Shown piece after piece: positions 3,392-59,462 of a stretch of 64,000 bases of DNA (positions within the stretch are counted from its first letter, which is position 1; the number at the start of each line of letters is the position of its first letter). This DNA is from Hydrurus foetidus (lineage: Eukaryota). Where the stretch lies: contig UYFQ01000173.1 of assembly GCA_900617105.1 (NCBI GenBank), positions 1 through 64,000 on the forward strand, read 5' to 3'. Below the pieces are notes generated by a model. The model made no database searches and was not told the origin of the DNA. It was given only the letters and a program-made list of their open reading frames with translations. The position numbers and the translations under genes are program-made.

Positions 3392-3488
3392 CCTACACAT
3401 TATCTTTTGAAGATTCCTCCTCATTTTTACAACTTTAAGTTGCTTTTCAGGAGGTTTAGTCAGTAAAAATCTGACATAAATGTGTAGG
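3392..3488 (+). ncRNA. Conserved structured cis RNA element (cloverleaf with ENE-like arm) in the Gypsy 3' UTR
   Basis: Four helices; homologous copy with compensatory changes at 39878-39985. Confidence 0.75.
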
Positions 3489-15554: not shown

Positions 15555-16922
15555 TGCAATGTCAAATAAATTTGCAAGAGTGGAGCAAATGAGCTGTACT
15601 CCTGTAGTGGAATAAATCTGTACTTTGTCTTATCTGCAGTCAATGATGTAAATACAGTATACAGTATATCTGCCTGATACCATGACTGTAAAATTTGGAA
15701 TTGCTGGAGTGTCGATAAATTTCAAAAACATTTTGGAATTATCGACACCCACCGAGTTCTCATGAACAGTCTACCAAATGTCATAAAAGTCGTGAGTAGA
15801 AAAATAACGATTTTGGTGCATTTATTTTCTTTATTTGTGAGATGCAAGTTGATTCGTCACATTTTCTGCGCTTTACCTGAAATAGATGATGATCATTTTT
15901 TGAATAGATTTGCTGATTTTTCGATTTGTTCTTTGCATAGAAGTTGAAGACTTCTTTCAGTTTTTGATCAAATAAATTGAACTTTCTTTCTTGTAGGAAG
16001 TTTCGGAGATGTTGTGATGTGTCGTGTCGCTTCTGATTTTCGTTCAACTTCATGTCCGTCAATCAAGTATACTGGAATTCGTCTTCTCCGCTCTCCCCTA
16101 TTTTTTCCGAAGCACATTCTTCGTGTTCTATTTTGAAAGAAGGAAACTGGTTGGTATAAAAATCATCATGAAATGAGTTGTCACTCGCAGTTATTGCCCC
16201 TGTTGTCAGTCTGTCCGACTGAGCCCGCTACCCGCTGTCATAACTGACCAGCAGTATGTTATTGTTTAATAAAAAACCGCGTTATCCGTTATTTGTTGTG
16301 GTTATTTCTCATCTGCTACTGTAAAATCTTTTACCAGCCCATCAACCCAAATCATACTGTTCTCCCAAAAATCATAGGGGGGGGTCTCCAGATTTCTCGT
16401 CCAAATCCTAGAATCTAGAATCCTAAATATGGGTTTCTGGGTGTTTTAACCGACCGAAGGTCGGTGTATTTAGACCGTACATGTGTACGTAATTTGTAGT
16501 GGACTTCAGCAGGGCGGGGCTGTCGGAATAACTAATGAGCTAAGTAACCGTATAAGTTATTACGTATGTACATTTGATGACGTTTCGTACGTCGTGTGCT
16601 GTGTGGTGGTCGCTACTCCACCGGTCCAGGTTCCTTCAACCCAATAACATCAAAATGATGAAAGTGCACCATGTTTGACTGTGCGGGACAGCGCGATCTT
16701 TTCGCCTGTCTCCATGAACGATGTAAGCGATGTTGCATCGTTAATTACCTTAATACTCACACCAGCAGAGCTTTCACCTTGAGCCCGGGAAAGTTGCTAG
16801 CGCACGTGTTGAACCTGCAGAAGGAGCGCGTACCCAGGAAGGATATAGTTGTCCATTCAGTGGAAACTGATCCTTAGTTACGACATAATCAACGAGTTGC
16901 TTTCTTTGCAACCAGTTGCAAC

Positions 16923-21000: not shown

Positions 21001-21895
21001 GCAAGACCTCATTGAGGGGTGTAAGGATATGCCGGGCACGGCAAACACCCCTGCACGAGCCAATCTATTCACTATACCTGACGATTCTGACTCACCCTTA
21101 CCTGATAATCTGCGTGGGCGTTTTCACTCTATTACAGCGAAGCTACTCTACTTGAGTAAGAGGACGAGGCCAGACATTCTGACTGCCGTAGCGTTCCTGA
21201 CAAAGAGAGTGCTGAGGCCCCAAAGGGACGACTACGACAAGCTGACCCGTACGATACAGTACATACGGGGTAGTCAGCATACGGGTATAACATTTGAAGT
21301 ATATGAACCTATTCATGTTATTGCATATATCGATGCATCCTTTGCCATACATCCCGATATGAAAAGTCACACAGGCAGCGTAATCACCCTTGGGAAGGGA
21401 GCGATCTACGCCAAGAGCGGTACTCAGCGCCTCATGACAAAGTCCAGCACGGAGGCCGAGCTAGTCGCACTCAGCGACGCCGCCAACCAAGTTCTGTGGA
21501 CCAGGAACTTCCTGGAGTGCCAGGGACACCCTCAACCTCCCGCCTTAGTGTATCAAGACAATCAGTCTACGATACAGCTCATACGTAACGGTCGCTCGAA
21601 CAGCGAACGTACGCGGCACGTTGATATACGGTATTTTTTCCTGCACGACAGAATCAGTACAGGCGATGTAGACATTGTGTACCTACCTACTACTGACATG
21701 ATTGCAGACATTCTAACCAAGCCACTGCAGGGTGAATTGTTCAAGAAGCTCAGGAAGGAGCTGCTCAACACTTCACCACCTACCCTCACGTACGCAGAAG
21801 GATGCAAGACTGAGGACCGTACGGACTCCGCGCCGACACCCGTACGCACCAAATTCAACCCACGATTTCCATACCCTACGTCCAAGAAGAACTAA
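18018..21895 (+). pseudogene. pol: Copia pol with an in-frame TAA at 20930
   Basis: LLDTCA protease; YQRRLGY..WGPDVGSLKGKTT (CoDi-type integrase N-terminus without canonical HHCC); KSRLVAGG, KKALYG, HVDD; SSTEAE, ADILTK. Confidence 0.93.
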
Positions 21896-21973
21896 TACCT
21901 ACCGACGAAGAATCCATCCGACATGCTACCCCCTCCATCTTACCCTTCTACAACGCCGCTGTCCGCTTCAGCT

Positions 21974-22136
21974 GAAGACTGAACACTCAAGACCCCAAGA
22001 CTCCGTCATTCCTACTGCCCCCACATCCGACTCTACTACCCCATCAGCGCGCGTCATGACGAAGACTGACCACTCAAGACACCAAGACTCCATCATTCCT
22101 GCTGCCCCCCTCCATCACTTTTCTTCTACCCCATCA
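21974..22136 (+). repeat. Two diverged ~87-bp tandem copies in the Copia 3' UTR
   Basis: GAAGACTGA(A/C)CACTCAAGAC..CAAGACTCC.TCATTCCT.CTGCCCC at 21974 and 22061. Confidence 0.85.
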
Positions 22137-27849: not shown

Positions 27850-29896
27850 ATGGGGAACAAAACTTCCTCTCCGTTCCCTACTTATGAATCTGCCTGCAAC
27901 CATTTAAACCCCATGGAAATCAGTCACCTGAAGAAATCCTTCAAACTTATAAGTCATAACAGTGAGACGATAACTTTATCTAGTTTCTCTCAGGTAAGAT
28001 GTTCCTATCACTAGTTAGCGATTATTGAAATGAATAGTGTGAGACGAATAACCTGCCACGAACTACCTGATCTGTCGCCAAATTCAATCTTTGTATGAGT
28101 TATGGCGATTTGAGTAATATGCGGCTATGAATGTTGTCCTGAACCCTTCTTTAAAATGTACAGCACTGCACAGTTGCGGCTCCATCTTCGCAGTATGTAA
28201 GGAAGCATGTTCTGCCGAGACTTTTTGCTACCATGGACTCGAAAAGAGATCACGTTATCGATTTCGAGGAATATGTCTGCGCAGTTGCTCTATTTCGTAT
28301 TGGCAGCACAGAAGACAAAATAAAAAGTGAGTCGCACTTCTATTTGAAGTGAATTTGCCGCATGCACGTAACGCAACCTATTCAAGCCGCAACGGCTGTA
28401 CAGAGCATTCCACTGGTCGGGCAGCTTCAGTATTATGCTAAGTTAGAATCATTACATATCCGTCGGTATCCAAAATATTAGGTCATCTTCGCCAATTCGA
28501 AAATAGTCGTTGATGATGTCTGAAATTTATCACACTGAGGTCAACGAGTTCATTCTAACAATATTGCTTGACGCCTAGACGTCCTCTATTCACATACTTA
28601 CTTCCTCTCTTACGTTCTTCTACACTAAATTCAGTTTTATTTCTCATGTACGAGCCACTGAAGGGGTCTCATCTAACCAGGTACGCTATGCTATGCTATT
28701 CTATTCTATCCTACTCTATGCTACTCTATTTTATTTTATGCTATACTATTTTATGCTATTCCATTCTATTCAATGCTATTCTATCTTATTCGATGCTATC
28801 CCATTCTATGCTATACTGTTCTATGCTATACTGTTCTATGCTATACTATGCTATTCCATTCTATTCTATACTATTCCGTTTTATACAATACTATGTTATG
28901 TTATGCTATGTTATGCTATTCCATTTCATACAATACAATGCTATGCTATGCTATGCTGATTGTCAGTCACACGAATTGGCATGACATTATATGTGCCCTG
29001 TCCATATTGTATGCGCTCCGACATCCCTCTGTTAGCATTTAAATCAGCTAGCTTCTGCTCGTAATTATCATTTTATATCTACATTGCACCATTTAGTCTC
29101 GTTACATTCCCTAGCCTGCTGCAATTTACCATTTTGTACTATACAATACTGTACTGTACTGCACTGTACTGTACACATCTAATTCTTCCTCAAATTCTAT
29201 CACTCAACAACAACTTGCAGGGAGAATGTGCGCAAGCTGATCGTGGACGCCACCATCGCTACGCAGAACAAAGAAGTGCCAGCAGCCACTCTGGAGTCGT
29301 GGATACACGTACGTACGCGATGAATGACGCACTACATCATTCTTTCTTTCATTTATCTTCGAGCGCTTCAATCCAGTTATTGGTATCGTGCTTTGTGTTA
29401 TTATCGCATCGTGTTGTCTTGTCTTGTCTTGTCTTGACTTGGCGAAACGTTTCATTGTGTGTTGCAGCGTGCCTTCATGAAACGGAGAAATGACCCAAGA
29501 TGCACAGAACAGTCAATCTTATGAAAGAATCTCCATGTCATGATAAGACTATGAAACCCATGAGAAGAAACAAATGTTCACATCTGGCTACATCTGACGT
29601 ATCCTCGATACCCTCCCTTGTGTAGGATCAGGAGGAGCTCTCCCTGTGCATGACCGACATGGCCCTGCAACAGGTACGTCAAACAGAATGCAACGGATTC
29701 AATTCAGTCTATCTCCTCTCCTCTTGTTTCACCTACTCCATCTCCCTCGCCATCTCCATCTCATCTTCTCTTTTTCCTTTTTTAGTTCGCCACTGTTGAG
29801 TCCAAATTGGATTTGTCTGAGTTCATTAACTTCGTCAAGGTAGAGGGCAGTCTTCAAGGGTTGCTGCTACTGCTCCCCAGTGCCATCGATAACTAG
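27850..29896 (+). CDS. N-myristoylated EF-hand protein (calcineurin B/NCS-like), ~198 aa, 6 exons
   Basis: MGNKTS start; DSKRDHVIDFEEY EF-hand; GSTEDKIKILFLMY; last exon KLDLSEFINFV ends in TAG at 29894-29896. Confidence 0.8.
28686..28956 (+). repeat. Degenerate pentamer satellite (CTATG/CTATT/CTATA) in an intron
   Basis: Clear 5-bp periodicity. Confidence 0.95.
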
Positions 29897-33299: not shown

Positions 33300-33709
33300 A
33301 TGATTCGAAAGACTCGAGACCAACACGTGCGTGTGATTCCACGTACAAAAAACTTGCCAAGGAATAAACGAGCCCTGTAGCCGTCTGGGGCCCTCGGGAC
33401 CTTGGACCCCATTCCGTCTGTTTGGGTTCATACCCAAACACACTGTAGACTTCTAGGTAGACTCCTAGCACCCTGGTAGGATGTTTCCCTGCTCATATAT
33501 AGTTCAACAACCCCTTTGTAAGCCTAACCCAACACCTCCTAGCCCTCTAGCCTAGTTCCTTCAGGGCCACAGTGACGTCACTTCCCACCAGCTTCTATAG
33601 TTTCCTAGTGTTCATTCGTGTTTTTCGCCGTCTTCCAGTGCTTCGCTGGAAAGTTTAAGAAATCCCTCGTGAAGAGGACTTTCCAGAGTTCCCTCTACTC
33701 AGAGATCGA

Positions 33710-36700
33710 TTGTTTTTGGCGGAGCAACGTGCTATTCGAGAGGAACTCGAAAACCGCTGCCCAACTCCGGAGATTACCTACGCCGACGACGATCCAGATC
33801 GTCCGCCTGACAATCCTCCGTCTAATCCATCAACTTTCACCGACCCACGTCCGTGGACAGTAGCTCCTACAGTCCTACGTCATTCTCTTGATAGAGAAAC
33901 CGCGAGTTCATCGCTTTATAACGCCTCTAATTACTACTCTACTCCTTCCACACACCCAGCACTCTCTTGCGTAACCCCTGCACCTTCAGCTTTTAAGCGA
34001 AGTCGACCGGTTTTCAAACCGAGAACAGTTGAGAAGCGACTTCCAGCAAGTTCGCTCCGCTGTATACCGAGGTTTCAACACGAAACCTTGTCGAATTTGT
34101 TGGAAACCAACGAATTTCTGAGTGTTACGCCTGTTTCTGTTTTGCAAACTCGACCAACTTATAAGTCGACATTCACACCGGTTCAACAAACCGAGTCAAA
34201 CCTAAGCAATCCACTTAGAGAGAAAAACGTTCCGGGGTTATATCCCGTTGAGCGTGGAAACGCTTCTTACGAGGCGTCGGGAGATAGTTTTCTATACGAA
34301 AATCTCCAGAATATAATTCCAACACTTCGTGTGGAATTATTGACTGAAAACACTCACCCTATGGTGAAGAAGAACCCTGTTCAGCCTTTACGGCGTGGAT
34401 CTAACCCGCAAACAAGGCGGAGAAACCCCTTGATGGAGTCGGAGTATGAGAATTCAACTTTGGAAGAAAATTCTGATTTACCCGCTTCATATGCGGATGA
34501 TAACCCTGATGAGGGAGATATGGACATGGAATCCTTTCCTTCTGATCAACATCTGACTGATCTAGAAGAGTGTGGAGAGATTCCATACGACGCCCAAAGT
34601 CCTTTTCAGGAACTTGTTGAAACCGAACCGTCGATTTCGAGTAGCTCGTCGAGCTCATCCAGCGTCATTGCTGTACCGCGGACTCCTGAACCTCGCGTTC
34701 CCGATCCTACCCTGCTTAACGCAGCAGTCGCACCCATCGTTAGCGATGGAGTACCACGTGAGAAACCACGTGAGCAACAGAGACAGATACCTCTCTCGCC
34801 CGTCGTCATCGACGTAGTACCCAACCCACAACCGAACCCTCAGTACAATATGGAACAGGTTACGACGGCGTTGAAGCAGACAATGACTGGCGGTTTGAAC
34901 CTACAGAAACCGTTATTCATCATTGATACCCCAGAGATAACTGGAGAACAAGCTGCCCAGTTTCAGAACCAAGCCAATCAATGGCATGAGAACTTCCTGG
35001 TACACCAGGTGGTGGTTAACCCTGCCACCTATGTGGTACAGTATGCGTTCGCGAGCGATCCAGAGTTCACTCTCATCCCTCCAAGCAAATACTCAACATG
35101 GTACAATCATGTTACAGTCAAACAGGCTGCCCAAATCATAACCAAATACTTTGGCGACAGAAATGATATTGGTAGAACACTCGTCGAGAACTTCTCACGA
35201 CTTGAAATCTCTTTCTGTTACACCAACGCAGACATTGAGAGAAAATCCTTCATGGCTCTCAAGGCGTTAACAACGGTCTATGAGAATACCCAACCGATCA
35301 CTCCGGCGCAGCATGCTGCACTGATAGTTACGATCGAGAAAAAACTGAAACCGGATAGTCAGCTTAAAAGCGACTATTTCGCGGCTCGTGGCAACGAGGG
35401 TAAACCTATACCGAACGAAACGTGGGAACAAGCGTTCACTCGTCTTGGTAAATGCATCTTCAATGTTAGGAAGCTCGTTGAACGAGTTGCTAATTATGGC
35501 GATACCTCCGCTATTCATACTCTGTTTAGCAAATACCAGGAGCAGGAGACTCGGCAGGCCAGAACACCGATAATCCCTGAACAGCGTTCTTACGCTGCCG
35601 CTGTCTACCTCAAGTCAGCGCTGGCGAACTCACCAGCTAACCCTCAACCTTCTGCTGCACCTGCACATGCTCATGCACACGCATCCTCACCCAGTGCAGC
35701 AGTGCTGAGGAGACCAACAACTGAATCAATAATTCAGTTGTTGCCGCAACCAGCGCCAATCCCATGTCGCTCATGCGGTCACACTGGACATGAAGTCAGA
35801 CTCTGTCCAGTTCTGTTTCGCACAGACGCCAACCATAGTGAACTCCACCTTCAATGGAAAGATTCAACAGCGGGTAAGATGTGGCATTCATATGGCTTCG
35901 AAGCTTATGATGATGGAGCCCAACTACCAAACCATGCTGTCCGCTACCTGGTCAAACCAGTGTCCGAGTTTAGATACTCGATGCTCCAACTACCCAACAA
36001 GCGTGCTCGTTTTGACAATGGAGGAGCTACCGTACCTACGTTACCCGGTCAACACGACCCCGCTAACAATGCACAGTACGCAGAAACACGCAGAAACAGA
36101 AAACAAGGTAAATCTGTTTCCTTAAACGCTATTGTTGCAGCCTCTATAACCAGAATAGAGATTGATTCTAACTTCTTATCTTCCTGGATTTTTATTAATC
36201 AGCGAAGTATAGTCAAGGACGGGGTGCGGGTCCAAGTGCATACCAGCCCCAACAACCACCACCATCCCACCCTTAGGGCTGAACGAGTTCTGGCAAAGGT
36301 CCTACTCGACACCGGGAGTCTCCCTGGCGACTTTATTAGTCAAGATTTTGTAATTAGTTTAAATGCTCAAGATTTTGTTTATACTTCTTCTAAAGCTTTA
36401 ACTATATGTTCGGGTCTAGATAACACATGTTATGTTAGGGACCAAGTAATTGATATTGGAATGACTTTTGTCACCCATAATTTATTAATTAATACCATTT
36501 TCTTAACGGTGCGGATTATTCCAAACACCATCGACTTAATTCTGGGTCGAACAACTCTTAAGAAATATGACTTCTTCGAGAAGACTCCCTACGAAATAGG
36601 GAGACCTAATATGGAGAACTCCTTCGAAAGAATGAAAGTTTTCTTATCTGCTGAGTGCATTCCGTCGGAATGTGTGGGCAAGAAGGATGATTTGGTATGT

Positions 36701-39700
36701 CCTCATTCTGGTAACAGTACCATGGCTTATCACAAAATAGACTCAAACAGAGTCGCTAACTGTTCTGATGTCGGATGCTCTAGTCAACCAAACGCCGCTG
36801 GGGTCGAACCTACGCGTAACAGTTGTAACTATGTATCAAACCATAGTGGTGTCATACGTACTCGTACGTACACCCTAGCACATTTATGTGAAATGCCAGA
36901 AGGTACTCCAACAGCTACTACAGTGGAAACACCTAGTGGTATCATAATCTCTTCTGACGAGATAGATAATGATAAGACGGATACATTTCGCCCATTCTTA
37001 CCTGAACGCGTTCAGCAGACTGCTCCGCCTCCAAGGCCAGAGGACTTTTTGTCACAGATAAAAATTGATGGAACGGAACACCAACAATTTCTTATTAGAC
37101 AACTCTGTCTTAAATATGCAGACATATTTAGTGATAAGCTAGCAGTTAAACCGGCTAGACTTCCCCCCTTTGTTATAAAGGTCAATAAAAGGGATTGGGA
37201 ATGTTCTAAAAATAGAACAGCCGTTCGTCTCCAATCAGTTCGAAAAGAACGAGAGATCAAACGTGCCATCGATGAGATGTTGAACTCGGGAGTCATCGAG
37301 GAATCGAATGCGGTTTATTATAGCCATCCTGTCATAGTACAGAGAACAGCTGACTTGTTCAGATTTTGCATTGACTACCGAAATCTGAACAAATGCACAC
37401 AGGCTTCCAGCTGGCCGCTTCCGAACATTCGAGCTCTTTTTGAGAGAATCGGCCATCAACAGCCAGTCATATTCGGAGTTATGGATTTAACTTCTGGTTA
37501 CCATCAGGCACCTATGGATCAAGGATCAAAGGTCCTGACTGCGTTCATTTGTTATTGCGGTGTATACCAATTCACCAGACTCCCCTTCGGTCCTCGGAGA
37601 GCCCCCTCTTACTTCCAAGAGATGATGGCGACTATTGTCCTTAATGGACTCATCTACATTTCTTGTGAGATGTACTTAGACGATTGTATCGTTTTTGCAC
37701 GAGGCCAGGACGAGTTCCTGGAGAGACTAGAACGAGTCTTTCGACGTTTTCGCTGTTTTGGTTTACTGCTTAAAGCAAAGAAATGTAGATTTGGGATGTC
37801 TCAGATCGATTATGTTGGCAGACAGATCTCTTCTCAGGGCATATCAATGTCAAAAGAGAAGATTGAATCTGTCCTAAATTTCCCAAAACCCATGACACTT
37901 ACTTCTTTACGAAGTCTGTTGGGCTTGGCGAATTACTTCAGGAATTTTGTTCCTTTTCATTCCGACATCGTTGCACCCCTTCAGAGGATGATTGACCCTA
38001 AAGGGAGGAAAAAGTCAGCCCTTCAGTGGACTACGGAAGCAGATAAGGCTTTTGTTCTCATAAGACAAGCCATATCCCGCTGTCCGCTGCTACACTTCTT
38101 AGACGAAGTGTCACCCATCGAGTTATACACCGATGCCTCTGACTACGGAGTAGGTGGAGTATTATTCCAAGTAACTAATTCTGTCAAGAATCCAATCTCA
38201 TTTGTGAGTAAGTCGCTTAGCGCAACACAAGTTAAATGGTCTACCATTCAAAAGGAGGCCTATGCAATATATTTTTGCTGTAAACAACTTGACTCTCTTA
38301 TAAGAGATAGAAAATTTATCATCCATACTGATCATAAGAACTTAACCTTCTTAGGTCAAGATCCATCAGCAATGGTAAATAGATGGTCGATGGCTCTCCA
38401 AGAGCTAGACTACACTGTGTCCTATATAAGTGGACCCAAGAACTTCATTGCCGATGCACTGTCTCGGTTATGTCCTAACTTAACACAGTTGGTGATTCTT
38501 GACCCACCTACTAGAGTGGAGGAAATTGATGTTCATATATCAGCTCTACATGAAGTTGCACCTGTTACCGAGTTACAACTCGAAGCTATAGAGATGTGCC
38601 ATAATGCCATGGTGGGACATGGAGGCATTGCTCGTACCCTCGATAAACTGTCAAGTATAGATGAGGAATGGCTCGACATGACATCCCATGTTAGAGACTT
38701 CATCCGCAATTGCGCATGTTGCCAAAAAATGAGTGTGATCAAAATCCCTGTTCACATTCATAAATACACAACGTCTACTTATAGACCGTTTGACACAGTC
38801 AACATCGACTATATTGGTCCGTATCCGGATAATGGATATGTTTTGGTAATGATTTGTTCATTCACAAGATGGACTGAGCTTTACTGGTGTGTTAACAACA
38901 CTGCACAATGTGCATGTGAATGCCTTCTACAATTCTTCGGTAGATTTGGTGCACCAAGCATGATCCGATCGGATCGTGGATCTCATTTCATGAATGAAAT
39001 CATACGTGAGTTCTTACTCCGTACAGGGACCCCCACAACTTAACCTTGGCATACTCAAAGCAGGAGAATGCTATAGTGGAAAGAGTTAATAAGGAAGTTA
39101 ATCGACACTTACGTGCTTTTACATTCCACTCTACAAATCTCGAAGCCTACAGGCTTTGCCTGCCTTTCGTGCAGAGAATTATCAACAGTTCCGTACATTC
39201 AAGTACGGGAGCTTCACCAGCTAGCTTGCTGTTTGGAAACCAACTAAACCTTGATAGAGGTATTCTTGTTAGGTTTCCAGATCAAACACAAGTTCCGACT
39301 CGTTCGTCGAAGGTGATTGCAGACATGCTGCTCATCCAAACGCAACTCAACGATTTAGCGATAAATAAGTTGAAGACAACAGATATTAACCGTGTAGCCG
39401 TTAATACAGAACCTAGAACTATTTTTCCAATAGGTTCGTACGTTCTCACTCTCAACCCTAGAGGTGCTGAGACTAGATTGCACAGTATGTGGCTGGGCCC
39501 ATTTCTTGTTGTAAGCTATGATAAAAGTGAATACACTATTAAAAATCTTATCACGAAGAAAAATCGTGATGTTCATGCAAGTCAGTTGAAACCGTTTAGG
39601 TTCAACCCAACTTCCCAATCACCGACTGACACAGCTCGTCGCGACTACATGGAATTTTTTATTGAAGAGATCGTTTCCCACGTTGGAAATAAAAAGAAAC

Positions 39701-39882
39701 CTTCTACAATGAAATTTTATGTTAAATGGTTGAACTACGATTCAAACCATAATTCATGGGAACCATGGAAGTCCATGCGCGCCACAGATCAACTTCATAC
39801 GTATCTGCGCAATAACAACATGTTGCACGTTATTCCAAAAGAATTTCGAAATATGACTCCCAATACAAGGGAAGAACCGTGA
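33710..39882 (+). CDS. Single-ORF gag-pol with a 1-nt frameshift near 39030; start codon uncertain (first ATG at 34361)
   Basis: CRSCGHTGHEVRLC, LLDTGS, YLDD, TDAS, HHCC, DDE core, GPF, chromodomain FYVKWLNYDSNHNSWE. Confidence 0.95.
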
Positions 39883-39985
39883 ATGATATCTTTTGAAGAT
39901 TACTCCTAAATATTTTTTTTACCTCAATTACTTGAGTTTTTTTTTACGGAGGTTAGTCAGTACAAATCTGACATAATCATTCACG
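39878..39985 (+). ncRNA. Second copy of the structured 3' UTR RNA element
   Basis: Same junction sequences and helix layout as 3392-3488. Confidence 0.75.
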
Positions 39986-40104
39986 AGTACACACACTCTA
40001 CACACAACCCCCCCTTCTTTTTTTCTTTCTTTTCACACATTGTATGGTGTTTTATACATATTTCTGAAAGGAAATAAAAAATGTCATCTAATTTTTGAAA
40101 ATGG

Positions 40105-40250
40105 TGCCCTTCATTATGAAGCGCTAGTTTAGTTACTCTTCCTTCTGAAGCGTTAGTTTAGATCATAAAAATCATTTCTAAAAAAATCATTTTCACTCTT
40201 CCTTAAGAAGCGTTAGTTTACTTGCCCTTCCTAAAAGCGCTAGCCTAGTT
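40105..40250 (+). repeat. Four short repeats with core CTTC..AAGCG(C/T)TAG in the Gypsy B 3' UTR
   Basis: Cores near 40119, 40148, 40208 and 40235. Confidence 0.8.
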
Positions 40251-41489
40251 TATTCATTCTCAAAATTGATTTCAATTTTAGTTAAAATAAGTGGGGGTAG
40301 TGTAGCCGTCTGGGGCCCTCGGGACCTTGGACCCCATTCCGTCTGTTTGGGTTCATACCCAAACACACTGTAGACTTCTAGGTAGACTCCTAGCACCCTG
40401 GTAGGATGTTTCCCTGCTCATATATAGTTCAACAACCCCTGCAAAATCCTACCTTTTTCTAAAGTAAGGTGGAACATCCATCAATTTCCTACGACATAGT
40501 GTGGAATAAAGCGTCGAACAAGGAATTGGACTCATCTGCTGTGCACACACTCATAATCCTTTTTCATCCTCCAACATTGGTTCGCCATACGTTGACTGTG
40601 TGATGTTTGTCATGAAGCACAGTCACGGCTCAGAAGTTCAGCACTTTCTCGTAAGAAGATGTCATATTACAATGTTAATTGCTCAGAACAAGAACATGGT
40701 GCATTATCGCAACCTAACTCCACTATGCCATAGTGGCACCCTTCCTTCAAGTATATTCCCGTTCCAGGCAGTTAAATTGTATCGCGCTACGATCTAGAGC
40801 AGAGAGAAGTATATGTCCAGCGCTATCGCATGGACTGTGATACTAAACTAGATTATGGATGTGGTACTTTGATATCTTACATGCGTATTGATCAGCGCTT
40901 GCTAGTGCACTGACAGCTATCGGACATACACACCAGTGCATACGATTTAAGAACATGTGTGTATCATAGTATTGTATTGAGTTGTATTGGCTCACTGTTT
41001 ATTTGATCGGTCAGTGGAGGAACTGAAGATTATATGCACCATCTTGTGGCTTGTAATCTTCACTTGATACGAAGCATATCGTATCGCATAATATCGTAGG
41101 TATTTACAGAATTCGCTATACGTTTTATCGTCACTTGCATTTCCTTTGCTTCACTCTCTTCTCCTCGAAGTTTGGCGGAATGTCTCGACCGGCGATGGCG
41201 GCGGTAAAGATTTAAGGAGACTTGTATGTGGGAGATTTGGTGCGTGATGTTGGTGAGTTGCACGTGGGAGTTTTCCTGGGTCGTTTAGTGGGCTTATAAG
41301 TAGGGCACTTGGTTGGCGATTTCGTTTTCGAAGACTTGCGTGTTGGAGTCATTGTGGGCGATTTCGATGACTTGCTCTCTGGAACTGTAGGTTTTACAGT
41401 GGTCGGTGTCATCGAAGGTGACGTCATTGTGGGTAACAACAGCAACATTAGTTGCTTTTGCTGAGCACCCAATTATCATATCTCAATGA

Positions 41490-46236: not shown

Positions 46237-47399
46237 GATTTACTTGTGGAGTGGATGTCAAATTGGCTTGATTACAAGGCGAAAGTTGTCGACGTGGATA
46301 CCTAGGAGTTTAGGATCCCAGATAGAAATCTAGAAGAGGGGGGGGGGGAGAATCCTCCAAATTTCTATCGGAATCCTAGATTTTGAAGTCTAGAATAGGT
46401 TTAGACAGTCTAGATTTGAGTTTTTTGGGTGTTTTTGTAATCAACGTAATAAGGCCACAATTCAAGGGAATGATCGGATTTCCGCAGAAATCGTGTTTTC
46501 GTGTTTGGGTGCAACGGATAACTGATACAGTGATCCCTGACTTGTTGGAACCAAATCACTTGAAATGTCCTTTATACTTCTAATATAATTCGACTGCCTT
46601 ATCCGAAGGGGCGTTGAGTCACCAGGCGCGCTTTCCTGTGATCAGTGGACCGCTTTGGATGAAGGGTTGAGCTTTGACGGCACAAGCGCTTCTTAATTAC
46701 TTGATAAAGAAATATGCGATGGTAGTTGTGGTGGCAACAGCGACAATTCAATTCTATCTTATCAGTTGACGAATTTAAAACGTGGACGAATTTGTATCTT
46801 AAAACGAATTTGTATCTTTCTGGAAGGATTGTCGTACGCATCACTTCAACGGTATTCAAAACATACACAATACAGGTACGCCATCAGATGGTTCGTACCG
46901 GCGCCGAAAAGCTACCGGCGACCGGTGGCCTAACCACTATACGGCACGAGGCTGGTGATGACGTCACCGTGGAAATCAATTAAATTATAGCGTAAGTACG
47001 TGGAATGCCGAACATACCCCTTGATGCGTGGCATCCGTTAAAGATTATCTCAGGAATTTCGTGGATCCGCGCCCGTAAAAAATCGATGGTGCTTCGGTCC
47101 CCCCCAGTAAAAAAAAATGTTTTCGTGGCCGCGACTATGCGTAGAATACAGCGATCGCTCTCCGAACTTCAGCACAACATACAGACACAGCACGCGCCCC
47201 CATGCCTCTCGAGTGAACTCTTGCACCAGGTGAGCCAATCTTGATAACCTTGTTTCTGTTTACTGGAATATGACAAGCCGCAATCGTCCCGGCGGGAAAA
47301 TATATTTGACAACCCGTGATCTAACATCACCAAGCAAAACCTGGGGCCTGGAAGTCCTGATCCGGTTTCCCTGGTGCAGAGGATTGGGCGGGGTGGCCA

Positions 47400-49257
47400 C
47401 TGTGCTCTGTATGTTGTCCTGTCAGGGAACGACGGAATTTCCCGAAAAGCACCCCGTGTAGAGGCTTCGTTAGGACCATGTCCCCAGTAGGCAAGTACCT
47501 CACATCGATTTCCTTGCTCTCAATGTAATGTGATACGAAGAAATGTCTGATTTTAATGTGCCTGCTTCTCTCGCTTGTTGAGCGCCCCTTCTTCGCTCTG
47601 GTTGTCTTGGAAGATCACTGCAGCTCCGAGGGAAAGTCCGCTAGAGATCAGGTACTCCCTTGTCCATAATACTTGCGACAGTGCATCTGAAATGCCGACC
47701 AATTCCGCTTCTGTGGATGAACTCGTTACGATTTTCTGCTTTCCAGACTTAATATAGATTACGGCATCACCCAACATAATCACAACTCCCGTCACAGATT
47801 TTCCATCCTCGTATATGTCAAAGGAGGCATCCACGAAGACTCTAAGCTGGGTTTCGCGGCCAATCTTGAGGATCAAGTGCTAGTCTTGTGTGTAAAGGAG
47901 GTAGGAAAGTATCCTGTCAACCTTCTTTTCGTCTTCTTCAGTTGGGCAGAGGACCCTAGTTGCACAGAATGACACTGATGTAAGTATATCTCCACGCACT
48001 CTCTTTGCCAGGTAGTGGAGCGTCATTACCACCGAGTGGAATTCCTCTTGCTTCTTCGCGGATAACTTTGGGCTCGTTGGATCGGATTTGAAAAGGTTGT
48101 CCGTTGCAGGCGTCGTGCATCTCTTGACTACATTGTATTTTCTTATGACATCTTTCACATATCCATCCATATGTAGTGTGACTTGGCCTTGCTCCTTGAA
48201 GTCCCAGTGAATGCCAAGGAAGTTGTGTTGCAGACCAGTGTTGGCAGTTACGCCCCCATACTTCTTCTTCAAGGTGTCCGCTATAAAGGTCAGCACTTCT
48301 TCGTCCTTCGATGTGATGAAAAGATCATCGACATATACTAGTATCATATCGATATCCTCACCACGAACTCTTCTAAACGAACATATGTCGTAGGGGTTCT
48401 TCTCGAAGCCCATGCTGTCCAGTGTTGAAGCTAGTCCGTTGTACCACAGGACGGCGCTCTGGATGCAGCCGTAGAGTGCTTTCTTGAGCCGTACAGTAAT
48501 TTTCTTGTCCGTGCGCACGTACTGTCTGTACGTCGGGTCGAGACGGCACATGATCTCTGCAACCTCGGGCGTCAACATCATCTCTACTCGGGGTCCCAGC
48601 ATAATCGCATTGAGATATGCGGCCTTGTGATCCAAGGTCATAACGTGGTGACCTTTGTGTGCCGCGAGTAACGCCATAGCCAACACAGAGGTGAGGGCAA
48701 CTGTAGGAGAGGAGACCTCTTTGTCATGGAACAATGATCGATCTTGCCTGTGCCCACCCGCAACCACACGCCCCTTAATCTTGTCGATTACCCCATTAGG
48801 CAGCTTCTTTGGCGTTAGGAATATCTTCGATGGAATAGCTCCAATAGGCTTGTATTGCGGATCCAAGCATTCCCAGACATCCTTCTGAATACAGTTCTTA
48901 AGCTCTTCCATGGATGCGGCGTCAACCAATGCATCGCCATACAATGACCTCGCTTCCTTCTTTGTAAGCGCCGTAAATATGCGTCGTTCGGGTAATGCGT
49001 TGTGTACACTATAACCTTGATTGATTGAGTTGCGTAACTCGACTAGCTCTTTTGCTTGTGTCAGGACTCTTTCAGGGGAATCATCGACTAATAGAGCTGT
49101 TGTTTCCTGTAGGTCGGGCAACAGGACTGGGTCACTTGCGTCTCCTTCGGATTGTACCAGTTGTGTGGCCTAACTATGGGCTCGGCGGTGGGACTGCTGG
49201 GTCAGGGCGCGGGGGCAAGAGGAAGGCAGCTGTGGTGCTGGTGCTATTGGCTAAAGA
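47400..49257 (-). pseudogene. pol: Copia 2 RT-RNase H
   Basis: KGRVVAGG, KKALYG, YVDD, SSTEAE; contains stops and small deletions. Confidence 0.92.
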
Positions 49258-52200
49258 TGTGGTTAGCTTACAGATAAACACAGAGATAGGCAAGTCATGA
49301 ATCGGATGGCTCGGATCGTCCCCGATCCGAACCGAACGTACGCCGGTACCCGTACAGCTGTACAGCTGTGCGGGTCACAATGGCCTCCCTCTCTCGAAAA
49401 AAAGGTTGTACTAAATTTTTCATGAACAATTTATCTATGCTTAAATACTAACATATAACTACTATTTCACGTTGAACATTGAGTTTTTTTTTTTTTTTAT
49501 AAACCTATATGTTTCATACTGTATATCGGTTAACGATAATTTTCAGCGAATTTACTTGGAATCAAGTGTTTTAGGTTTTTAGCAATTAAGAACTCGTGGA
49601 CTTTTTCAGCGTCACGCATGTTTTTCCACGGTTCCCAAGTGTTTCTGTCGTGGGGATAATTTAGCCACTTGACGTGAAACTTTAATGTTCCCACCACTCG
49701 GATGTTCCCTTCCATTGCTAGGATATCTTCGATAAAGAATTCGAGATAATCTCGTCGGGCGATATCGGTTGGGTTGACCTTTGTAGGGTCAAACTCAAAT
49801 TGTTTAATATTTGATACATGGTATCTTTTTTCGCGGTTGGTAATAAGATCGAGTAGTGTATACTCGTCGAGATCGTTAGCGACCACTTGCATGGGACCTT
49901 TCCATAAAGTGTGCATGCGTGTTGGTTTTGATGTGCGGTGGGTAACCAGTACCAACGAGTCGATTTCGAACGTTGTGTAGTCGGTGGAACCGCCTGCTTT
50001 TCGTTTCTCGTCCGCTTCTTTGAGTAGTTCAGCAGTGATTCTGATGAGTTCATCTTGCATCTGCATAATTTTCTCAGTAGAATGGGTGACATGAGCCATG
50101 TCTAAGTTTATCTCATCTCGAGGGAGAAGGATGTTGGCATCAAGGTCAATAGCATTGCCGTATATAAGCTTTGCTGCTGTTGACTGTGTCCGTACGTTGA
50201 ATGTCGTATTTATAATTCGTTGTACGAATGGTAAAATTTCTCGGTAGTTTTCCGTAGTTGCACGGTCAAATGTAAATGCCGTGATGTGTCGGTTAATTTC
50301 CTTATTCATACGCTCTACTATCGAGTTTTCTTGCGAAGAGTATGGTAGAATAAGGTTGTGTGTTGTACCGGCAACTTTTACAAATTCCTCGAGGATTTTG
50401 TTTACGAAATGGGAACCGTTATCGGATCGCAGGAATTTGGGAGCTCCGTAGCGACCGATGTGTTCTATTAGGCCTGTTACGGCCGATTTTGCAGTATTAT
50501 CAGTTGTGGCTGATAGTTCGACAAACCTTGTGAAGGTGTCTACCATAACAAGGATGTATCCTTTATCCGGGAATGGACCAATAAAGTCTATGTTTATGCA
50601 TTCCATAGGTGCATATGTTGATGTTGTGAAACGATGGGTGACGGGTTTTTGTTTGTCAGCAGACATCTTTTGGCAACACGGGCATTGTTTAATGTATGCT
50701 CTTATATCGTGTCTCATGCCTTCCCATACTTTCCCTATTTTTTAGGTTTCGCAAAGTGCGATTGAATCCTCCGTGCCCAACGGTAGAGTTGTGGACACGC
50801 ATTAAGTATGCATATATTTCCGCTGCAAGCGGTTTGCAAGTTAGGATTGCTGTTATGATGTGTTTCGGCATCTTGTTTTTACATAGGCGTGACATTGCGT
50901 CAGCGACTTCATTATTTTTCCCAGGGATATACCCTATCGTAAAATCTAATTCCTGTAGCGCACAGCGCCATCTTCCGACCATCTCATTTTTATCCTTGTG
51001 CAGGAAAGTAAGATTTTTGTGATCGGTCAGGATAGTAAACTTACGATCTCGTAGCAGGGCGTCGAGATAGTCACAGCAAAAGTAAAGGGCGTAAGCCTCT
51101 TTTTGTATTACGGACCATTTCAACTGGGTCTTGGTAAGAGATTTGCTTACGAGAGCGACGAGTTGTTTGACTCCGTCGACTTCTTGATATAAATAACCAC
51201 CTATACCGTAGTCAGACGCATCTGTCATGAGGGTAATAGGTGCTACATCGTCGATGAAATATAATAAGGGACTCTTGGAGATAAGATCTTTGACTAACGT
51301 AAACGCGTCGGCCGCTTCGTCTGTCCAGACAAGCAATGTTTGCTTTTGGCGGCGTGATCTATCATTTTGTGTAGCGGTGCTACCACATTTGAGTGATTTG
51401 GTACATGATCCCTAAAGTAATTGGTGAGACCGAGGAACGAACGTAGTTCAGTTGTCTTTCTTGGCATCGGAAAGTCAGTCACACCCGTTATCTTTTTGGA
51501 GCTCATTGATATACCTTCCTTAGATATTTGTCTACCAACATATTCAACTACTTTGACGTTAAGTCTTAGCTTTGCAGCCTTGAGTGAAATGTTTTTATCT
51601 TCTAGACGTTGAAACAATGTTTCTAAACGTTCACAGAATTGGATGTGTCCATCAGCATATATGATGATGTCGTCTAAATAGACTTCACAGATGCTGTATA
51701 TAAGGCCAAGTAGTACTATTGACGCCATCATCTGTTGAAAGTATGATGGGGCCATCTTGGGACCGAATGGTAGTCGTGTGAATTGGTATATACCCATAAA
51801 TGTTATAAATGCGGTAAATACTTGTGCCGCCAGTGTTATTGGGGCTTGGTGGTATCCGGCCGTAAGGTCGATTACGCCGAATACGTTTGGCCGTTGCGCG
51901 CCAAGTCTGTATAACATTTGTTTTATATTTGGGATCGGCCAACTTGCAGATTCGGTTGCCTCATTGAGGTTCCTGTAATCTATGCAGAATCGGAGTGAAC
52001 CGTCTGGTTTATTTGCAAGTATTACTTGGGAGTAATATGAGGCATCGGATGGTTTTATTATTCCCTTTTTGAGCATTGCTACGATTTGTTTTCTGATTTC
52101 CTCTTGTCGCATCGTTGAAGCGACTCTGGGAGCACCCCGATTACGGAAGTGTTTCCATTGAGGTATGTTTACCTTTTTGAAATCAAAGGGGGAATTCGAG

Positions 52201-55200
52201 CGGGTTCTGGACCCAGCTCGTTTTTGAAAAGCGATTTGTGTTTTATGCAAATCGCTTTAATTTCGGCAATCTCAGTTGGTGTACCATCGATATGTATTAA
52301 ATCAATTAAGTACATCGAATCGTTGTTTTGATTGTCTTGAAAAGGAGCGAAGGTATCCTTCGACTTGTAGTCGATCCCTTCCTTATCACGGAAAGACCGA
52401 ACCTCAGGGAGGTCTTCGTCTTCCTCCCTAAGTAGAGCTGCCGCAATACCACGCGTTTCGGTTGGTGTTATGGATGAGGGTGTAAGAGTAGCTACTCTCT
52501 TACGCCTTTTGGTTTTTACACCAGATCCATTCTGACGCGGAAGTGGCAACACTAGTGTTGTCAAATTGGTGGTGCGTAGTATGGACTCATCGGAAGCAAG
52601 CTGAGCAACTGCCGTCGCTGAGCTTGTAGAACACCCGCATGAAGAGTTGCAAGTCTTGTGTGTACAAGCACCTCGAGCTACCAGGTTATCCTGCCGGGGA
52701 AAGTCTGTAGTCGAGGGATTTATGCCCTCCATGACAGAAATGCCAGGAGGTAGTGGGGACCCTGGGTCAGCTATTTTACTTTCCTTTTGGACAGTGTCCT
52801 TTTCCGTTAGTAACGGTAAAGGAATTTCCGTTTGGATTGTGTCTGCTGACGCTGATTCGGCTGATATTACCTCGGGGGTAGTTCGGTGTCTATGAGTACC
52901 GTGTGTGGTACTTGTGCATCGTCCTCAGCCGAGAACGACACCCTTTGTTTTTTAGCGGTGAAGCTGGTATCGCACTAGGCGTTATTTTATCGAGGTTCTG
53001 GAAGAACTCTGGTATTATTTTTACCAAATTTAAATTTTTTATAGTCTGTAATCCTAAGATTAGGTCGACTTTTGACTCCGGAGCTATTCGGACAGGAAGA
53101 CTAAAAGTGTGTTTTAAATCGTCTTTATTAAATGATACAACAATATCAAGCACATTTGTAGATTCTACACATTGATTATTTAAGCCACTACACATCCACA
53201 TGGGTGAGTCGGATTTCCTCAAGTGGGTTTCGCCACGGAGGCCCCGAAGGACTCTACCGTTGATGACGTCCCCGACTTGACATCCAGTGTCGATTTGGGC
53301 TAGGGCTTCCATGCCTCTAGTTTGGTACGTATTGGTTGGAGGAGGAGGAAGAAGAGGAAGATTTATGTCTGTCCCCCTCCTTGCTCTCCGCCTGGTGCGA
53401 GTTGTCCCTGCGATCGTCAGGTCGGTCGCGACTTGGTTTGAAATTGGCGATCGGATCTGTGGTAGAGATATGTGAACTTGTAAGAAATCATCTATGTTTT
53501 CAGTTAATACAGCTGATAGAAGTTGTTTCATTGACGGTAATTCTCGAGCGTACTCGATTATGTCCGTACTTGGGTTAGCAAGTTGTGACTTACTTTTTCC
53601 CTTGTAGTTGGAGCTCAACTTGTTCGTGTTAGAACGATCGTTGTCCCTATCCGGTTGAGTCTGGTTGCTCTTGTACTTGTTGTACTTGGTGTTGTTGTTG
53701 GTGGCCAGCTTTTGTTTCTTGGTCGGACGGTCGTCTTGGGCTCTCCCTGGAGGAGAGAAGTCGTTCTCAACATCGTCAGATGGATACACGTAGGTAGCTG
53801 CCCCGGGGTTGTTGGTGTCCCGGGTAAGTTCCCCGTTGATGTACACATTTGGTACGAAGAATTCGTGACCAATCCGTTTGAAGTCCTTTGCCTCCTCAGA
53901 CTGCGACCAAGTGCGATGGCTACGGTTGCAGTGAGGGTTCATGTGGTTTTGGCATTCGTAACGGTTGTGTCCCTTTTTGCCACAGGTGTGACAGAAGTTG
54001 GTCGCCCGGCTGAGGCCGGACGACTCAGGGTCCACCTGACGTTTTGGGATTGCCTTGTAGGCGTTAGCCGAGTGGCTGTCACGGTGAGGTGCGACCTCAA
54101 CGTCGTCTTGGTCGGTTGGCGTGAGCTTTGACTCGAAGACGAAGTCGAGACCTCCCATGTCCTCCGCGTCTTTGATCATCTGGCGTGCTTCGCCCAGCAT
54201 GACGACAAGACGCGTGAGCATTTTGAAGATGGTATCTTTCCCGGTCTTTTTCGTCTTACGTTTTGTCTTTGCCATGAAATTGTCTGTAAACTTGTTGTTC
54301 TTTGGCAGCTTCTTGTAGAAGGCCTTACAGATATCATTTTGCATGTCGGCATCGATATTGTCGTATGACGTCCAGAATCCGAGTAGGATGTCACGGAACT
54401 CAGAGAGAGCTCTGTCTTCAACAGAAGGATCTTTCCAGCTGATGCGGAATTTGCAATTCTTCAACTTCATTTCGAAGTCGAAATGGGAAGACGTACGTTT
54501 GTTTTTGTAAAAGATCTTTTTAAGATCATTTGCAATGTTCTTTAACGTTAACGTTTTGCCTTCGACCGTTGGCCAGGCGAGACAAGTCTTGGTGTTGTAA
54601 CCTGTCTCGCTTTTGCATCGAAGCAACTGGTCGCGGATCGTTTGGATGGCATCCATTTCGATTAGCATTTCCCAACTGGTTAACATACCGGGGCGGTATG
54701 CTTGTTCGTAAAACGCTCTTGCTGCTTTATCAGCGTCGTCGAGAAGTTTTTCTCGAGTGAGGTAGTACGCCTCCTTCATGTTGATGATGGAGGTTTGCAA
54801 ACCCGCTTTGCGTTGTGGAGGGGAATCCTCTTCCGAGTTTTCCGCCTTTTGCGCGCGGTGTGTTTTACCGGATTTGGCATCGGCTTTGGTTTTCACCTTT
54901 TTGTCCTTTGGGGCGGGTTTGGGACCCGCCTTTGGGGACTTTTTCTTGGCGAGGGGTTTTATCTTAAGGGACTTCTTGTCCTTGGGCTTAGACTTTTCGG
55001 GTTCGACCTCCTCGTCGTCTTCGACTTCGACTTCAGCTTTCGCCTCATCGTCGTCGCTGTTGTCGTTCCCGTCGTCGTCCCCGTCACCCTCTCCGTCGTC
55101 CCCGTCGCCACTACTTGCGTCGGACTCGTCGGAGGAGCTGTCGGGGTTGCCACCATCGCCTCCCGTGTCGTTAACGTCGTCGACGTTACTGTCGTTCGTC

Positions 55201-56370
55201 GTCGGACTCGTCGGGGGTTTGTCGTCGTCGTTGTTGTTGGCATTGTCGTCACCGTCGGCGTCAGCCTCCGGATCTGACTCGGCGTCGGCCTCGGCCTTGC
55301 CGGTGTCGGATGCCTTTTTGTTGTGACTTTGGCGTCGACTGATGGTTCGAACAGATCGTCCTCTGCACCGATTTGTTGCAGTCGCGGAGGGAGTATCGAG
55401 GTTTCTCCCCCTCTTTTTAGGTACCCGCGGGTATCGAGGGGAGAGTCTGTCTCGCCCTCGGCTTCCTCGGGTGCCAACCCGAGGAGCTCGTCGTTTGAGG
55501 GCTCTAAAGCGTCGGCAGCAGCTTGTGCAGCAGCTATTTGTGCTTGCTCTAGTTGTGAGCTGCTTGCATTTCTTTTGTTGCTGCTATGACGCTTTGGAAG
55601 AAAATTTGTTCGTCCTCAAGACGAGTTGGGGTAGCCGAAACATGTATTGCTTCTTTGGCCAGAGCCTGTATCGATTTCTCGATGTTTTGCTTTACAAGGG
55701 CCTGCTCCGCTTTGTGCTTTTCCTTCTCAGTGAGAGGAGCACTGCGCGAAGCGCTTGGAGCTGAAGAAGCAGAGGCGGCTGCGTTAGCAGCCGCTTTCTT
55801 CTTTATTTGGGCCCTTGTCATGGGACTTTTGTCTTGAGCTTGAAACGTCTGGATCTTGGGGTCTTGGACAGCGACGGAACTCGGACGCGGCGCTCTATGG
55901 AGCTGAGGATGTGATCCCGCAGCTATGATGTCGTGGGATCGTAGGATCCTTTAACTGATGGAGCTGTTGGTGGTTTACTTTCGCGCGATTTCGTCGGAAA
56001 TCGCTCGAAAAGTTGCCTGGCGTTTTGAACCTATCAAGGAGCTAAACTGCGGGCGTTTTGGCCAGCTTTCGTTTCTCTAACGATGGGACTTGCTTTTGCT
56101 CGACTCAGAGCTACTTGCTTCGTTAGGCTTCGAGTTTTGAAGCCGTCACGATTTTGTCGCGAAAATATCGACGACTCGAGCTTTTTAACTAAAGCGTTTC
56201 AGAGGCTGTCGATTAGACGTAGCCTTTGTAGTGTCTTTCGACGTTGTTTTCACTTGTTGCCAAGTTACTAGCTTGTTTGCACGCCGTTTTACGGGTCGTG
56301 GCGATGTTTTTGGGAAGCGTTTTGGAACTGGTCTCTAAAAAGAGCACCAAGTTGGTCCAAATACTAGTAT
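49258..56370 (-). mobile_element. Gypsy chromodomain element C, nested, 5' LTR missing
   Basis: PPT GAGAGAGGGAGG followed by a TG..CA LTR at 49379-49258; no second copy of this LTR in the window. Confidence 0.9.
49530..55821 (-). pseudogene. Gypsy C gag-pol, multiply frameshifted
   Basis: Acidic N-terminus, CHTCGKKGHNRYEC, IDTGC, YLDD, TDAS, integrase, chromodomain FHVKWLNYPHDRNTWE. Confidence 0.93.
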
Positions 56371-58271
56371 TCCTGATCAACTGACTCGTGCAATGGTATG
56401 GGGTCATCTTCTCCAGGTGTGGCAGCTTTTTGAGTCCCTTGTCCAAGTTGATACGCTGCAGGTGAGCCGTAGATGTCTTGGGCATGCACTAGATCGGCTC
56501 GAGTGAAGCCGAGATCCTTCATGCTGCCACGCTGGACAACTTCGGCTGTAGCCTTCTAACTGATGAATCCCATACGTATGATAAAATCATAGGCCTTGCG
56601 AGCAGCCAGCAGCTGCCGCTTGGAGTAACGGAGTGCATTTTGGCTAACACTCATGTGAAAGACCTCATGCAGAGTCTTTAGATCCAACAGGTAGTGCCCA
56701 CCGACGCATTTGAATACGAGCGTGGGGCCTACGACCAATTGGACTGCAGAGAATGCATCTTCCATTTCGTTGTAGTGAATATGATGTGTCTCCTGAAGCT
56801 TGTGGTAGCTTAGAATGTTTGCGGCCATGCGAGGTCCAAAGTAGGCAGTGACTCCAATGTCTTGAATGTATCGTTCCGACGTGACCTTAACTCTCTCTCC
56901 TGTAATTCCTTGAACGACAACAGGTGTCGCGCTCGGTGTGATGTCAATCAGGAGCTCTGGGTTGGACACGAGGTGGATACTGGATTGAGTATCTAGCAAT
57001 ACGACGGTTCCTTGTTGTTTGTTTGTTAAAGACATCAGAATGGATACGACATCTTCATCAGTTGGAACTTCGACAAGGGATTCTTCTTCAGCGGGATGGA
57101 ATCTCTCGATCGTTGTAAGAAAAATTTTGGCGTTTTCTGTCGAGTCTGTGAAGTGAACTGTCTTTGTGGGACAAGTTGTTGAACGATGCCCCTTCTTCCC
57201 ACATGTCCAACAGATAATGTCAAGTGGTTTGATGGAGTCAACAACGACTGGATGTGGTGGAGAATAATGTCTGCGGCCTCTTCCTCTGCCTCCGCGGCCG
57301 CCTCGACCACTTCGTCCTCGTCGACCACCTTGTCCTCTACCGCTGCTGCGTCCGCGACCGCCGTCATCTGGTTCATCAACTCTTGATAAGTACACGGCTT
57401 GGAGATTTGGCACTCCTGTACCCCTGAATCGTACGACTTGTGTGTCCTTAATTTCCTTCCATAAGGTTGAGGGGAGGTCAGGGAGTGCTGCGATGCCGCG
57501 TCTCTCGTTGTCGAGGTAGTCTCGAACCAAGGATCCATATCTGGACATGTCGAGCCGGTTGAGCACTCCGATGATGAGTTCATCAGCTGGTATTTCCGGG
57601 AGGCCTACAGAAGTGCGCTCGAGCTGGTAGTCTTCTACTCTCTTTCTGAATGCGAAACTGGTCTCCTGGGGGAACATTCTGATCGACCCCCAAGTGGATC
57701 GGACACGCTCCATGTCTTGGCCGGGATTGCCGCTCTGACGAGCAATGTGCGTCGCTCTGATTCTCTCGATGAGATATAGTAGGTCGCGAATCAAGAAGTT
57801 CGCTACCCAGTCCTCATCGTACTGTACCTCGCTCCTGGAGGATTCACTTAGCTGGGCGTAAACGAGGGCAAAGACTGCCTTTTTATGTTCTTCAGTCTTC
57901 GTCGTCTCGATTTTCCACTCCTTCTTGTCATTGTTGTACTCGGCCAGGATGGCCTTTCCAACGATCGTATTTGCGATTGGATCTGGCTCGGGTTCCTCCT
58001 CGCCGAACTCTGGCGGCGATGTCCAAAAGGCTTGAGCGATGCAGGCCTTGTATTTAATCGCGCAATATTCACCAATCAGCTGCAAGAACTCAATTTGCCG
58101 ATTCTCTCGTGGGGAGGCTCCATAATTGAGGCACGGCATATCAGGATTGCTTCCTTTGAACTTCGCCTCCGTCCTCTGCGGCTCCCTAGCCGGTTGGGGT
58201 GTTCCTCGGCCTCGGCCGCCCCATCTTCTTCGACCTCTCGGGTCGTTCTCGATTCCGCGTCCGGACATCAT
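56371..58271 (-). pseudogene. gag: Copia 2 gag, protease and integrase N-terminus
   Basis: CWTCGKKGHRSTTC and LLDTQS in one frame; after the TAG the frame continues ..AQDIYG..ESVDQE and then breaks off. Confidence 0.9.
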
Positions 58272-58974
58272 TTCAGATTCTCTCTGGCCAAAAACTCTTT
58301 GGGCTTCTCTCACGCAGTGATCGCGACTTCGCTGCAGTAGTTATTTCTTTATGATCGGATTTCCGCAGAAATCGTGTTTTCGTGTTTGGGTGCAACGGAT
58401 AACTGATACAGTGATCCCTGACTTGTTGGAACCAAATCACTTCAAATGTCCTTTATACTTCTAATATAATTCGACTGCCTTATCAGAAGGGGCGTTGAGT
58501 CACCGGGCGCGCTTTCCTGTGATCAGTGGACCGCTTTGGATGAAGGGTTGAGCTTTGACGGCACAAGCGCTTCTTAATTACTTGATAAAGAAATATGCGA
58601 TGGTAGTTGTGGTGGCAACAGCGACAATTCAATTCTATCTTATCAGTTGACGAATTTAAAACGTGGACTTGAATTTGTATCTTTCTGGAAGGATTGTCGT
58701 ACGCATCACTTCAACGGTATTCAAAACATACACAATACAGGTACGCCATCAGATGGTTCGTACCGGCGCCGAAAAGCTACCGGCGACCGGTGGCCTAACC
58801 ACTATACGGCACGAGGCTGGTGATGACGTCACCGTGGAAATCAATTAAATTATAGCGTAAGTACGTGGAATGCCGAACAGGGAACGATAAACGTCTCCGA
58901 TAAAATTTTACGATAAAATATTTTATCGGTTTTCAATTAATTCTACCGTATTTCGTGTTCGGTGGCCCCTTTTA

Positions 58975-59462
58975 GAATGTCTTGAAGATTTCGCAGTAGA
59001 GCATAACAAATTGTAATTAAAAGCACTCTTATCCTGAGAAACGTGCTCTTCCATGGACAGTTTTTGAATCTTCTATATGCTTCTGCAGAATGCTCTCAGC
59101 GAAACTGCAATTACAAAATTGTTTCCTAGCGCTGGTAGCAGTGCACTCATTTGAAGTTGTTCAAAGGATGTTGCAACAGGAGCTATTTCATCTCTGCCTA
59201 TTTACTAGAGAAACATCAGCAATTTCTCTGTGCTTAGCGTGCTGTTGACCCAGAATTGTCAAAGGAGATAAAAGCCCATTGCCCCTTGCACTCGAGCCTA
59301 AAGAAAAGCTAGACTGGTTCTTTCAACCGCCGTTTCGCAAGCGGCATTTTGCATAAGCAGTCAGGAGTTTCAAAAACTGTCCATGAAAGAGCACGTTTCT
59401 CAGGATAAGAATGCTTTTAATTACAATTTGTTGTGCTCTACTGCGAAATCTTCAAGACATTT
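58975..59462. mobile_element. MITE/foldback element with ~135-bp TIRs and TA flanks
   Basis: AATGTCTTGAAGATTTCGCAGTAGAGCA..GGACAGTTTTTGAA is inverted at about 59368-59461; the inner arms are more degenerate. Confidence 0.88.

Follow-up and report, generated by a model that had tools for sequence, protein, structure and literature searches.

Complementarity between the primer-binding site and the LTR interior suggests self-primed reverse transcription in a divergent lineage of Copia retrotransposons

On the minus strand of the analyzed window (the whole stretch of 64,000 nucleotides), a Copia element likely uses the 5'-terminal 11-12 bases of its RNA to prime reverse transcription, a reading to which we assign a probability of about 0.78. 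It is suggested by an exact complement between the primer-binding site (PBS) and the interior of the long terminal repeat (LTR), and by a survey of distant relatives of the element.

Structure of the Copia element

The outer element, which bears the LTRs and the PBS, is a Copia that has lost its integrase (Table 1). It has the end features of Ty1/copia, namely TG...CA LTRs, a polypurine tract (PPT) and a 5-bp target-site duplication (TSD), and its reverse transcriptase (RT) domain RVT_2 (49169-47880; PF07727, E 4.5e-27) assigns it to Ty1/copia. The Copia label of the initial annotation thus holds for the outer element, whose gag-protease and RT-RNase H regions both match one relative, P0203. 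Homology to P0203 breaks at residue 647 (56370) and restarts at residue 981 (49082), so that residues ~647-981, the integrase region of ~330 residues, are missing between the two parts; the Pfam model rve gives no match even on intact Copia relatives. The place of the integrase region (49083-56369) is taken by ~7 kb of a Gypsy chromovirus body, which the initial annotation leaves unmentioned. The assignment of the LTRs to this Gypsy body was considered and rejected, since Copia gag follows the PBS and Copia RT-RNase H precedes the PPT. A search for an LTR pair belonging to the nested body (49530-55615) found none, and an A-run lies ~30 nt past its last open reading frame. The Gypsy body may stem either from a nested insertion accompanied by deletions or from Gypsy RNA captured by template switch. 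The two Copia LTRs differ by three substitutions and one indel (16 extra nt in the 3' LTR). The gag-protease frame is broken by a stop at 56556-56558, and with no integrase and with stops in gag-pol and RT this copy is unable to move alone.

Table 1. Positions of the features of the Copia element, its Gypsy insert and the second Copia element in the window.
Feature	Position	Strand	Remarks
5' LTR	58352..58879	-	528 nt, TG...CA
GCA initiator-like motif	58596..58598	-	A at 58596 is the predicted transcription start
Predicted self-primer	58585..58595	-	TATTTCTTTAT, exact complement of the PBS; LTR positions 285-295
PBS	58342..58352	-	ATAAAGAAATA; takes in the terminal A of the LTR; no TGG
Copia gag and protease region	56370..58271	-	RGG stretch, one CCHC knuckle
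Nested Gypsy chromovirus body	49530..55615	-	RVT_1, RNase H, rve, chromodomain; several frames
Copia RT (RVT_2) and RNase H	47330..49169	-	contains one stop and one frame change
PPT	47015..47022	-	abuts the 3' LTR
3' LTR	46471..47014	-	544 nt; repeats the primer sequence at 46704-46714
TSD TTCCC	58880..58884 and 46466-46470	-	both flanks of the element
Second Copia, LTR site complementary to PBS	16738..16747	+	after GCA; 9/10 complement of PBS 16886-16895

Other repeats and the host

Two further Gypsy chromoviruses are present in the window, at 33376-40451 (+) and 698-3950 (+). The LTR copies of the former are alike over only ~150 nt, and its candidate LTR end is followed by the palindrome GTGACGTCAC; within 33481-33700, an LTR complement of at least 7 nt after any CA was absent. 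Approximately 100 nt outside the 5' LTR of the Copia element lie MITE-like inverted repeats of 133 nt (58976-59461, 89% identical), near which contig depth is very high, and a tandem array with a 10-nt period occupies 28656-28967. For the neighboring host gene BT1, the nearest named matches (46-57%) come from Thalassiosira exigua and Ochromonadaceae sp.; red algae and mosses rank behind them, and the host, as far as can be judged from sequence, is likely a stramenopile. The 22 listed runs containing the stretch, among which no RNA run was found, represent one organism as well as freshwater, sediment and air metagenomes.

Primer-binding site and its complement in the LTR

The exact 11-nt complement between 58352-58342 and 58595-58585, with GCA in front of the latter, was reproduced at the coordinates proposed in the initial annotation, as was the absence of a TGG site, none being present in the 60 nt that follow the 5' LTR. 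The arrangement is that of Tf1, i.e., a PBS at the LTR end that is perfectly complementary to the LTR interior, combined with the absence of a tRNA site. The primer sequence TATTTCTTTAT recurs in the 3' LTR at 46714-46704. With start offsets from -1 to +5 allowed, dinucleotide shuffles of the LTR gave a match of at least 11 nt in 3/5000 cases and of at least 10 nt in 19/5000, and real window positions taken as false PBSs gave at least 11 nt in 19/17,904, which puts the chance of the 11-nt match at ~0.001. A contig variant in two runs (X1 and X2) carries two changes in the PBS, at 58344 and 58347, and is counted against self-priming. In another run (X3), a single contig of depth 4.8, too weak to use, is without 11 nt (58587-58597), a gap that removes the initiator CA together with the greater part of the predicted primer.

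The second Copia of the window (16521-22887, +), with an RT 37% identical to that of the first, is also without TGG. In its LTR (16521-16885), the complementary site lies 149 nt before the LTR end, and the single mismatch of the 9/10 complement occurs in both LTRs. The tree neighbors of this element, L073 and L062, have 9-nt matches that start at YCA.

Complementarity in related elements

An RT alignment search provided 89 loci, of which 77 were the top-ranking among 535 metagenome matches and 12 came from genome (MAG) contigs; alignment scans of metagenome and viral contigs with gag-protease, and of viral contigs with RT, yielded no locus. The fetched relatives are distant, their RTs being 35-47% identical to that of the element, and all scored relatives lie outside its own subclade, which is represented by proteins alone (55-95% identical). 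LTR starts were set from the PPT, and LTR ends by the terminal inverted repeat that precedes gag, blind to complementarity. Forty-two loci were dropped before the blind count, half of them (21) having no LTR-gag junction and the other 21 no callable PPT, and the removal of three duplicates left 44 distinct elements.

A perfect LTR/PBS match of at least 10 nt was found in 31/44 of these relatives, and one of at least 11 nt in 27/44. Complementarity thus recurs in the relatives, with letters that differ between families. The control pairing the PBS of one element with the LTR of another gave a match in 24/1892 pairs, and other CA positions gave one in 9/811. Perfect matches span 10-17 nt across the lineage, plus one of 34 nt; the latter, in L008, is double the length of the next longest. 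Among the 13 relatives that failed the blind test, LTR ends chosen post hoc rescued five (11-17 nt) and left eight without a match. Post hoc matches of 12-16 nt were also obtained for 8/21 loci with no callable PPT, all of which stay outside the count. TGG occurs near the called LTR end in one of the 44 relatives (L014). Four relatives (L039, L002, L014, and L025) have a callable LTR and a match shorter than 10 nt, and are candidates for another priming mode or for mis-called ends. Twelve Copia contigs of the lineage (L078-L089) were found inside bacterial MAGs of GTDB, where they most likely represent eukaryotic contamination.

In a quickly computed RT tree (105 rows, no outgroup), matching elements are scattered throughout. 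The element itself falls into a well-supported protein subclade whose link to L034, L039, and L071 is weak; of these three, L039 alone entered the blind count. This nearest scored neighbor, placed with weak support, has a match of 6 nt only, which is counted against self-priming.

Signature of the match

The 31 matching relatives and the element itself form a set of 32 in which position and context of the match were compared. The match starts at the last A of the LTR in 20/32 elements and directly after it in 10/32, so that offsets of -1 or 0 account for 30/32; a primer must sit at one of these two offsets to define the LTR end. The element shares the signature of the lineage, namely offset -1, CA directly before the match and C directly after it (as in 12/20 of the offset -1 cases). 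This signature, together with the chance value of ~0.001, argues against an origin of its 11-nt match by AT-rich coincidence, or its survival as a relic, in a subclade that primes otherwise. In favor of such a coincidence or relic are the AT-rich composition of the match, the finding of an 11-nt match between the PBS of the element and 1/44 foreign LTRs and of 10-12-nt matches between its LTR and 2/44 foreign PBSs, as well as the negative neighbor L039 and the PBS variant in X1 and X2. We regard this explanation as very improbable.

The letters of the site vary widely, 31 distinct PBS 10-mers being present among the 32 elements (median pairwise identity, 5/10), and therefore no single tRNA can serve the PBSs of the lineage. 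The compared sites of sister pairs are in register in the LTR alignment and different in 4/11 pairs, out of register in 6/11, and show no difference in 1/11. In the four informative pairs, 10/10 PBS differences are mirrored in the LTR site, a result partly built in, since the sites were selected as perfect complements, and obtained with LTR ends of L048, L050, and L057 picked post hoc.

According to an alternative explanation, priming is by a host RNA (a whole tRNA, a half tRNA, or another small RNA), and the LTR match forms a helix with a structural role in packaging or regulation. Half-tRNA priming without TGG is indeed known from Copia lineages (PMC6317226 and PMC5445492), and the TGG near the called end of L014 points in the same direction. 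However, the PBS is AT-rich and different in 31/32 elements, and neither Copia of the window fits the anticodon-arm register (Y32 U33 R37), which a published half-tRNA PBS does. The register test is lax, 19/32 relatives passing it in some register and with many different anticodons. No tRNA genes were detected by ARAGORN within the 64-kb window. Given the diversity of the PBSs and the failed register, a tRNA primer appears unlikely for the element, and we consider host-RNA priming in general quite improbable.

CA marks the 5' boundary of the match in 29/32 elements (16% expected; 14% in an AT-matched background). At least five of six positions of the initiator YYANWYY agree in 27/32, versus 26% in the background (consensus from PMC3599244). 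The same source describes the oomycete initiator YCAYTYY, with transcription starting at its A, and reports that no INR+FPR was found in Thalassiosira. The initiator-like CA boundary favors a Tf1-like primer taken from the 5' end of the RNA. Predicted starts precede the LTR end by 100-245 nt (median, 142.5), with the longest distance in the element itself; no TATA enrichment was seen upstream. The proposal of the initial annotation, a start near 58596 coupled with self-priming, is well backed by this comparison (complementarity in 31 of 44 relatives, CA in 29 of 32 elements) and retains the status of a prediction.

RNA folding

Folds that start at 58596 contain the helix between PBS and primer at lengths of 267 and 327 nt (pair probabilities, 0.63-1.0) but not at 397 nt, and its loss in the longest fold is counted against self-priming. 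The duplex is weak (-7.8 kcal/mol, with one G-C pair), the median of the 32 elements being -11.75. Hairpins are predicted on either side of the PBS, candidate counterparts of a U5-IR-like supporting stem. The helix also forms when the fold begins at the 5' end of the LTR, and folding therefore cannot place the transcription start.

Formation of the helix when the site is not the 5' end is also one of the points in favor of a primer that derives from the RNA of the element but not from its 5' end, being either cut from the 3' LTR copy or provided by a second packaged RNA. Two other observations are compatible with such a source: the primer sequence sits in both LTRs, and the downstream TATAAA at 58457 may represent a TATA box instead of a poly(A) signal. 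The sharp start of the match at an initiator-like CA in 29/32 elements nonetheless fits a 5' end and not an internal piece, and we judge this origin of the primer improbable.

Proposed mechanism

Under the preferred reading, in which the 5' end of the element's own RNA is the primer, and by analogy with Tf1, transcription would begin at the A at 58596, within the initiator-like GCA. The 5' end of the RNA would then fold back onto the PBS across ~240 nt of R-U5, leaving the first A unpaired and forming 11 base pairs. A cut by RNase H after base 11 or 12 would free a piece of 11-12 nt, which would prime minus-strand DNA synthesis at the LTR end. The new PBS would be copied from the primer in every cycle, and the two sites would thereby stay perfectly matched even as their letters drift. 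In Tf1, the self-primer is reportedly not removed.

Relation to known systems

To our knowledge, proof of self-priming is confined to Gypsy elements of fission yeast, with predictions for a few further groups. In Tf1, pairing involves the first 11 bases, and the RNase H cut falls between bases 11 and 12 (PMC7175516). The Copia element resembles Tf1 and Tf2 of Schizosaccharomyces pombe (Tf1/sushi, Ty3/gypsy) in having a PBS complementary to an LTR-internal stretch, which is 11 nt long here as in Tf1. It differs from Tf1/sushi in its Copia RT and domain order and in matches that span 10-17 nt (34 nt in one case) across the lineage, and its self-priming is predicted from sequence. Membership in Tf1/sushi was rejected, since the LTR-bearing element has a Copia RT and the Gypsy domains belong to the insert.

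Self-priming of Copia as such is already known as a prediction, and the view of the initial annotation that no self-priming Copia was known does not stand: Neumann et al. (2019; PMC6317226) predict it for 89% of 203 elements of the plant Ty1/copia lineage TAR and cite an earlier proposal for Houba and Osr-1. The element and TAR have in common the Copia superfamily, the 5-bp TSD, and the criterion applied (at least 10 nt, 0-5 nt from the LTR end; PMC6317226). Unlike that of TAR, the host is apparently not a plant but a microbial eukaryote from freshwater. Plant Copia elements usually match the Pfam models Retrotran_gag_2, gag_pre-integrs, and rve; in five polyproteins of the lineage and the gag of the element, no match to these models was found at E 0.5. 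The missing matches and the host suggest that the lineage may be independent of TAR.

As divergent Copia of aquatic protists, the lineage may be likened to the diatom CoDi elements (CoDiI, CoDiII, and CoDi6; PMC2806351), and in the three best Atlas clusters for the gag of the element, diatoms are the commonest taxon (2-3 members each). The accessible portion of the CoDi paper (PMC2806351) contains no passage on tRNA or primer binding. The fungal GalEa elements are likewise Copia without a tRNA PBS (PMC5445492). According to that text, they carry a conserved, palindromic site that forms a local hairpin and for which no LTR complement was found, whereas the letters of the site described here vary and its complement lies in the LTR interior, 100-245 nt upstream. 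In PMC3601003, a self-priming ancestor is raised as speculation. A literature search, whose coverage excluded most subscription papers and Repbase reports, found no self-priming protist Copia lineage.

Implications

Whether a large and divergent Copia lineage in aquatic protists acquired self-priming independently of both Tf1/sushi and TAR, with the downstream half of the initiator serving as the primer and with promoter and primer site forming one co-evolving sequence that is re-templated every cycle, is in our estimate an evenly balanced question. If true, self-priming across a broad protist Copia lineage would imply several origins, or an unexpectedly early one, for the abandonment of tRNA primers, and would show Copia RNase H to be able to cut an RNA duplex to make a primer. 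Annotation tools that demand a tRNA PBS would miss or misjudge such elements, and the primer would predict the transcription start to the base. Self-priming elements would be independent of host tRNAs, which may ease their moves between hosts.
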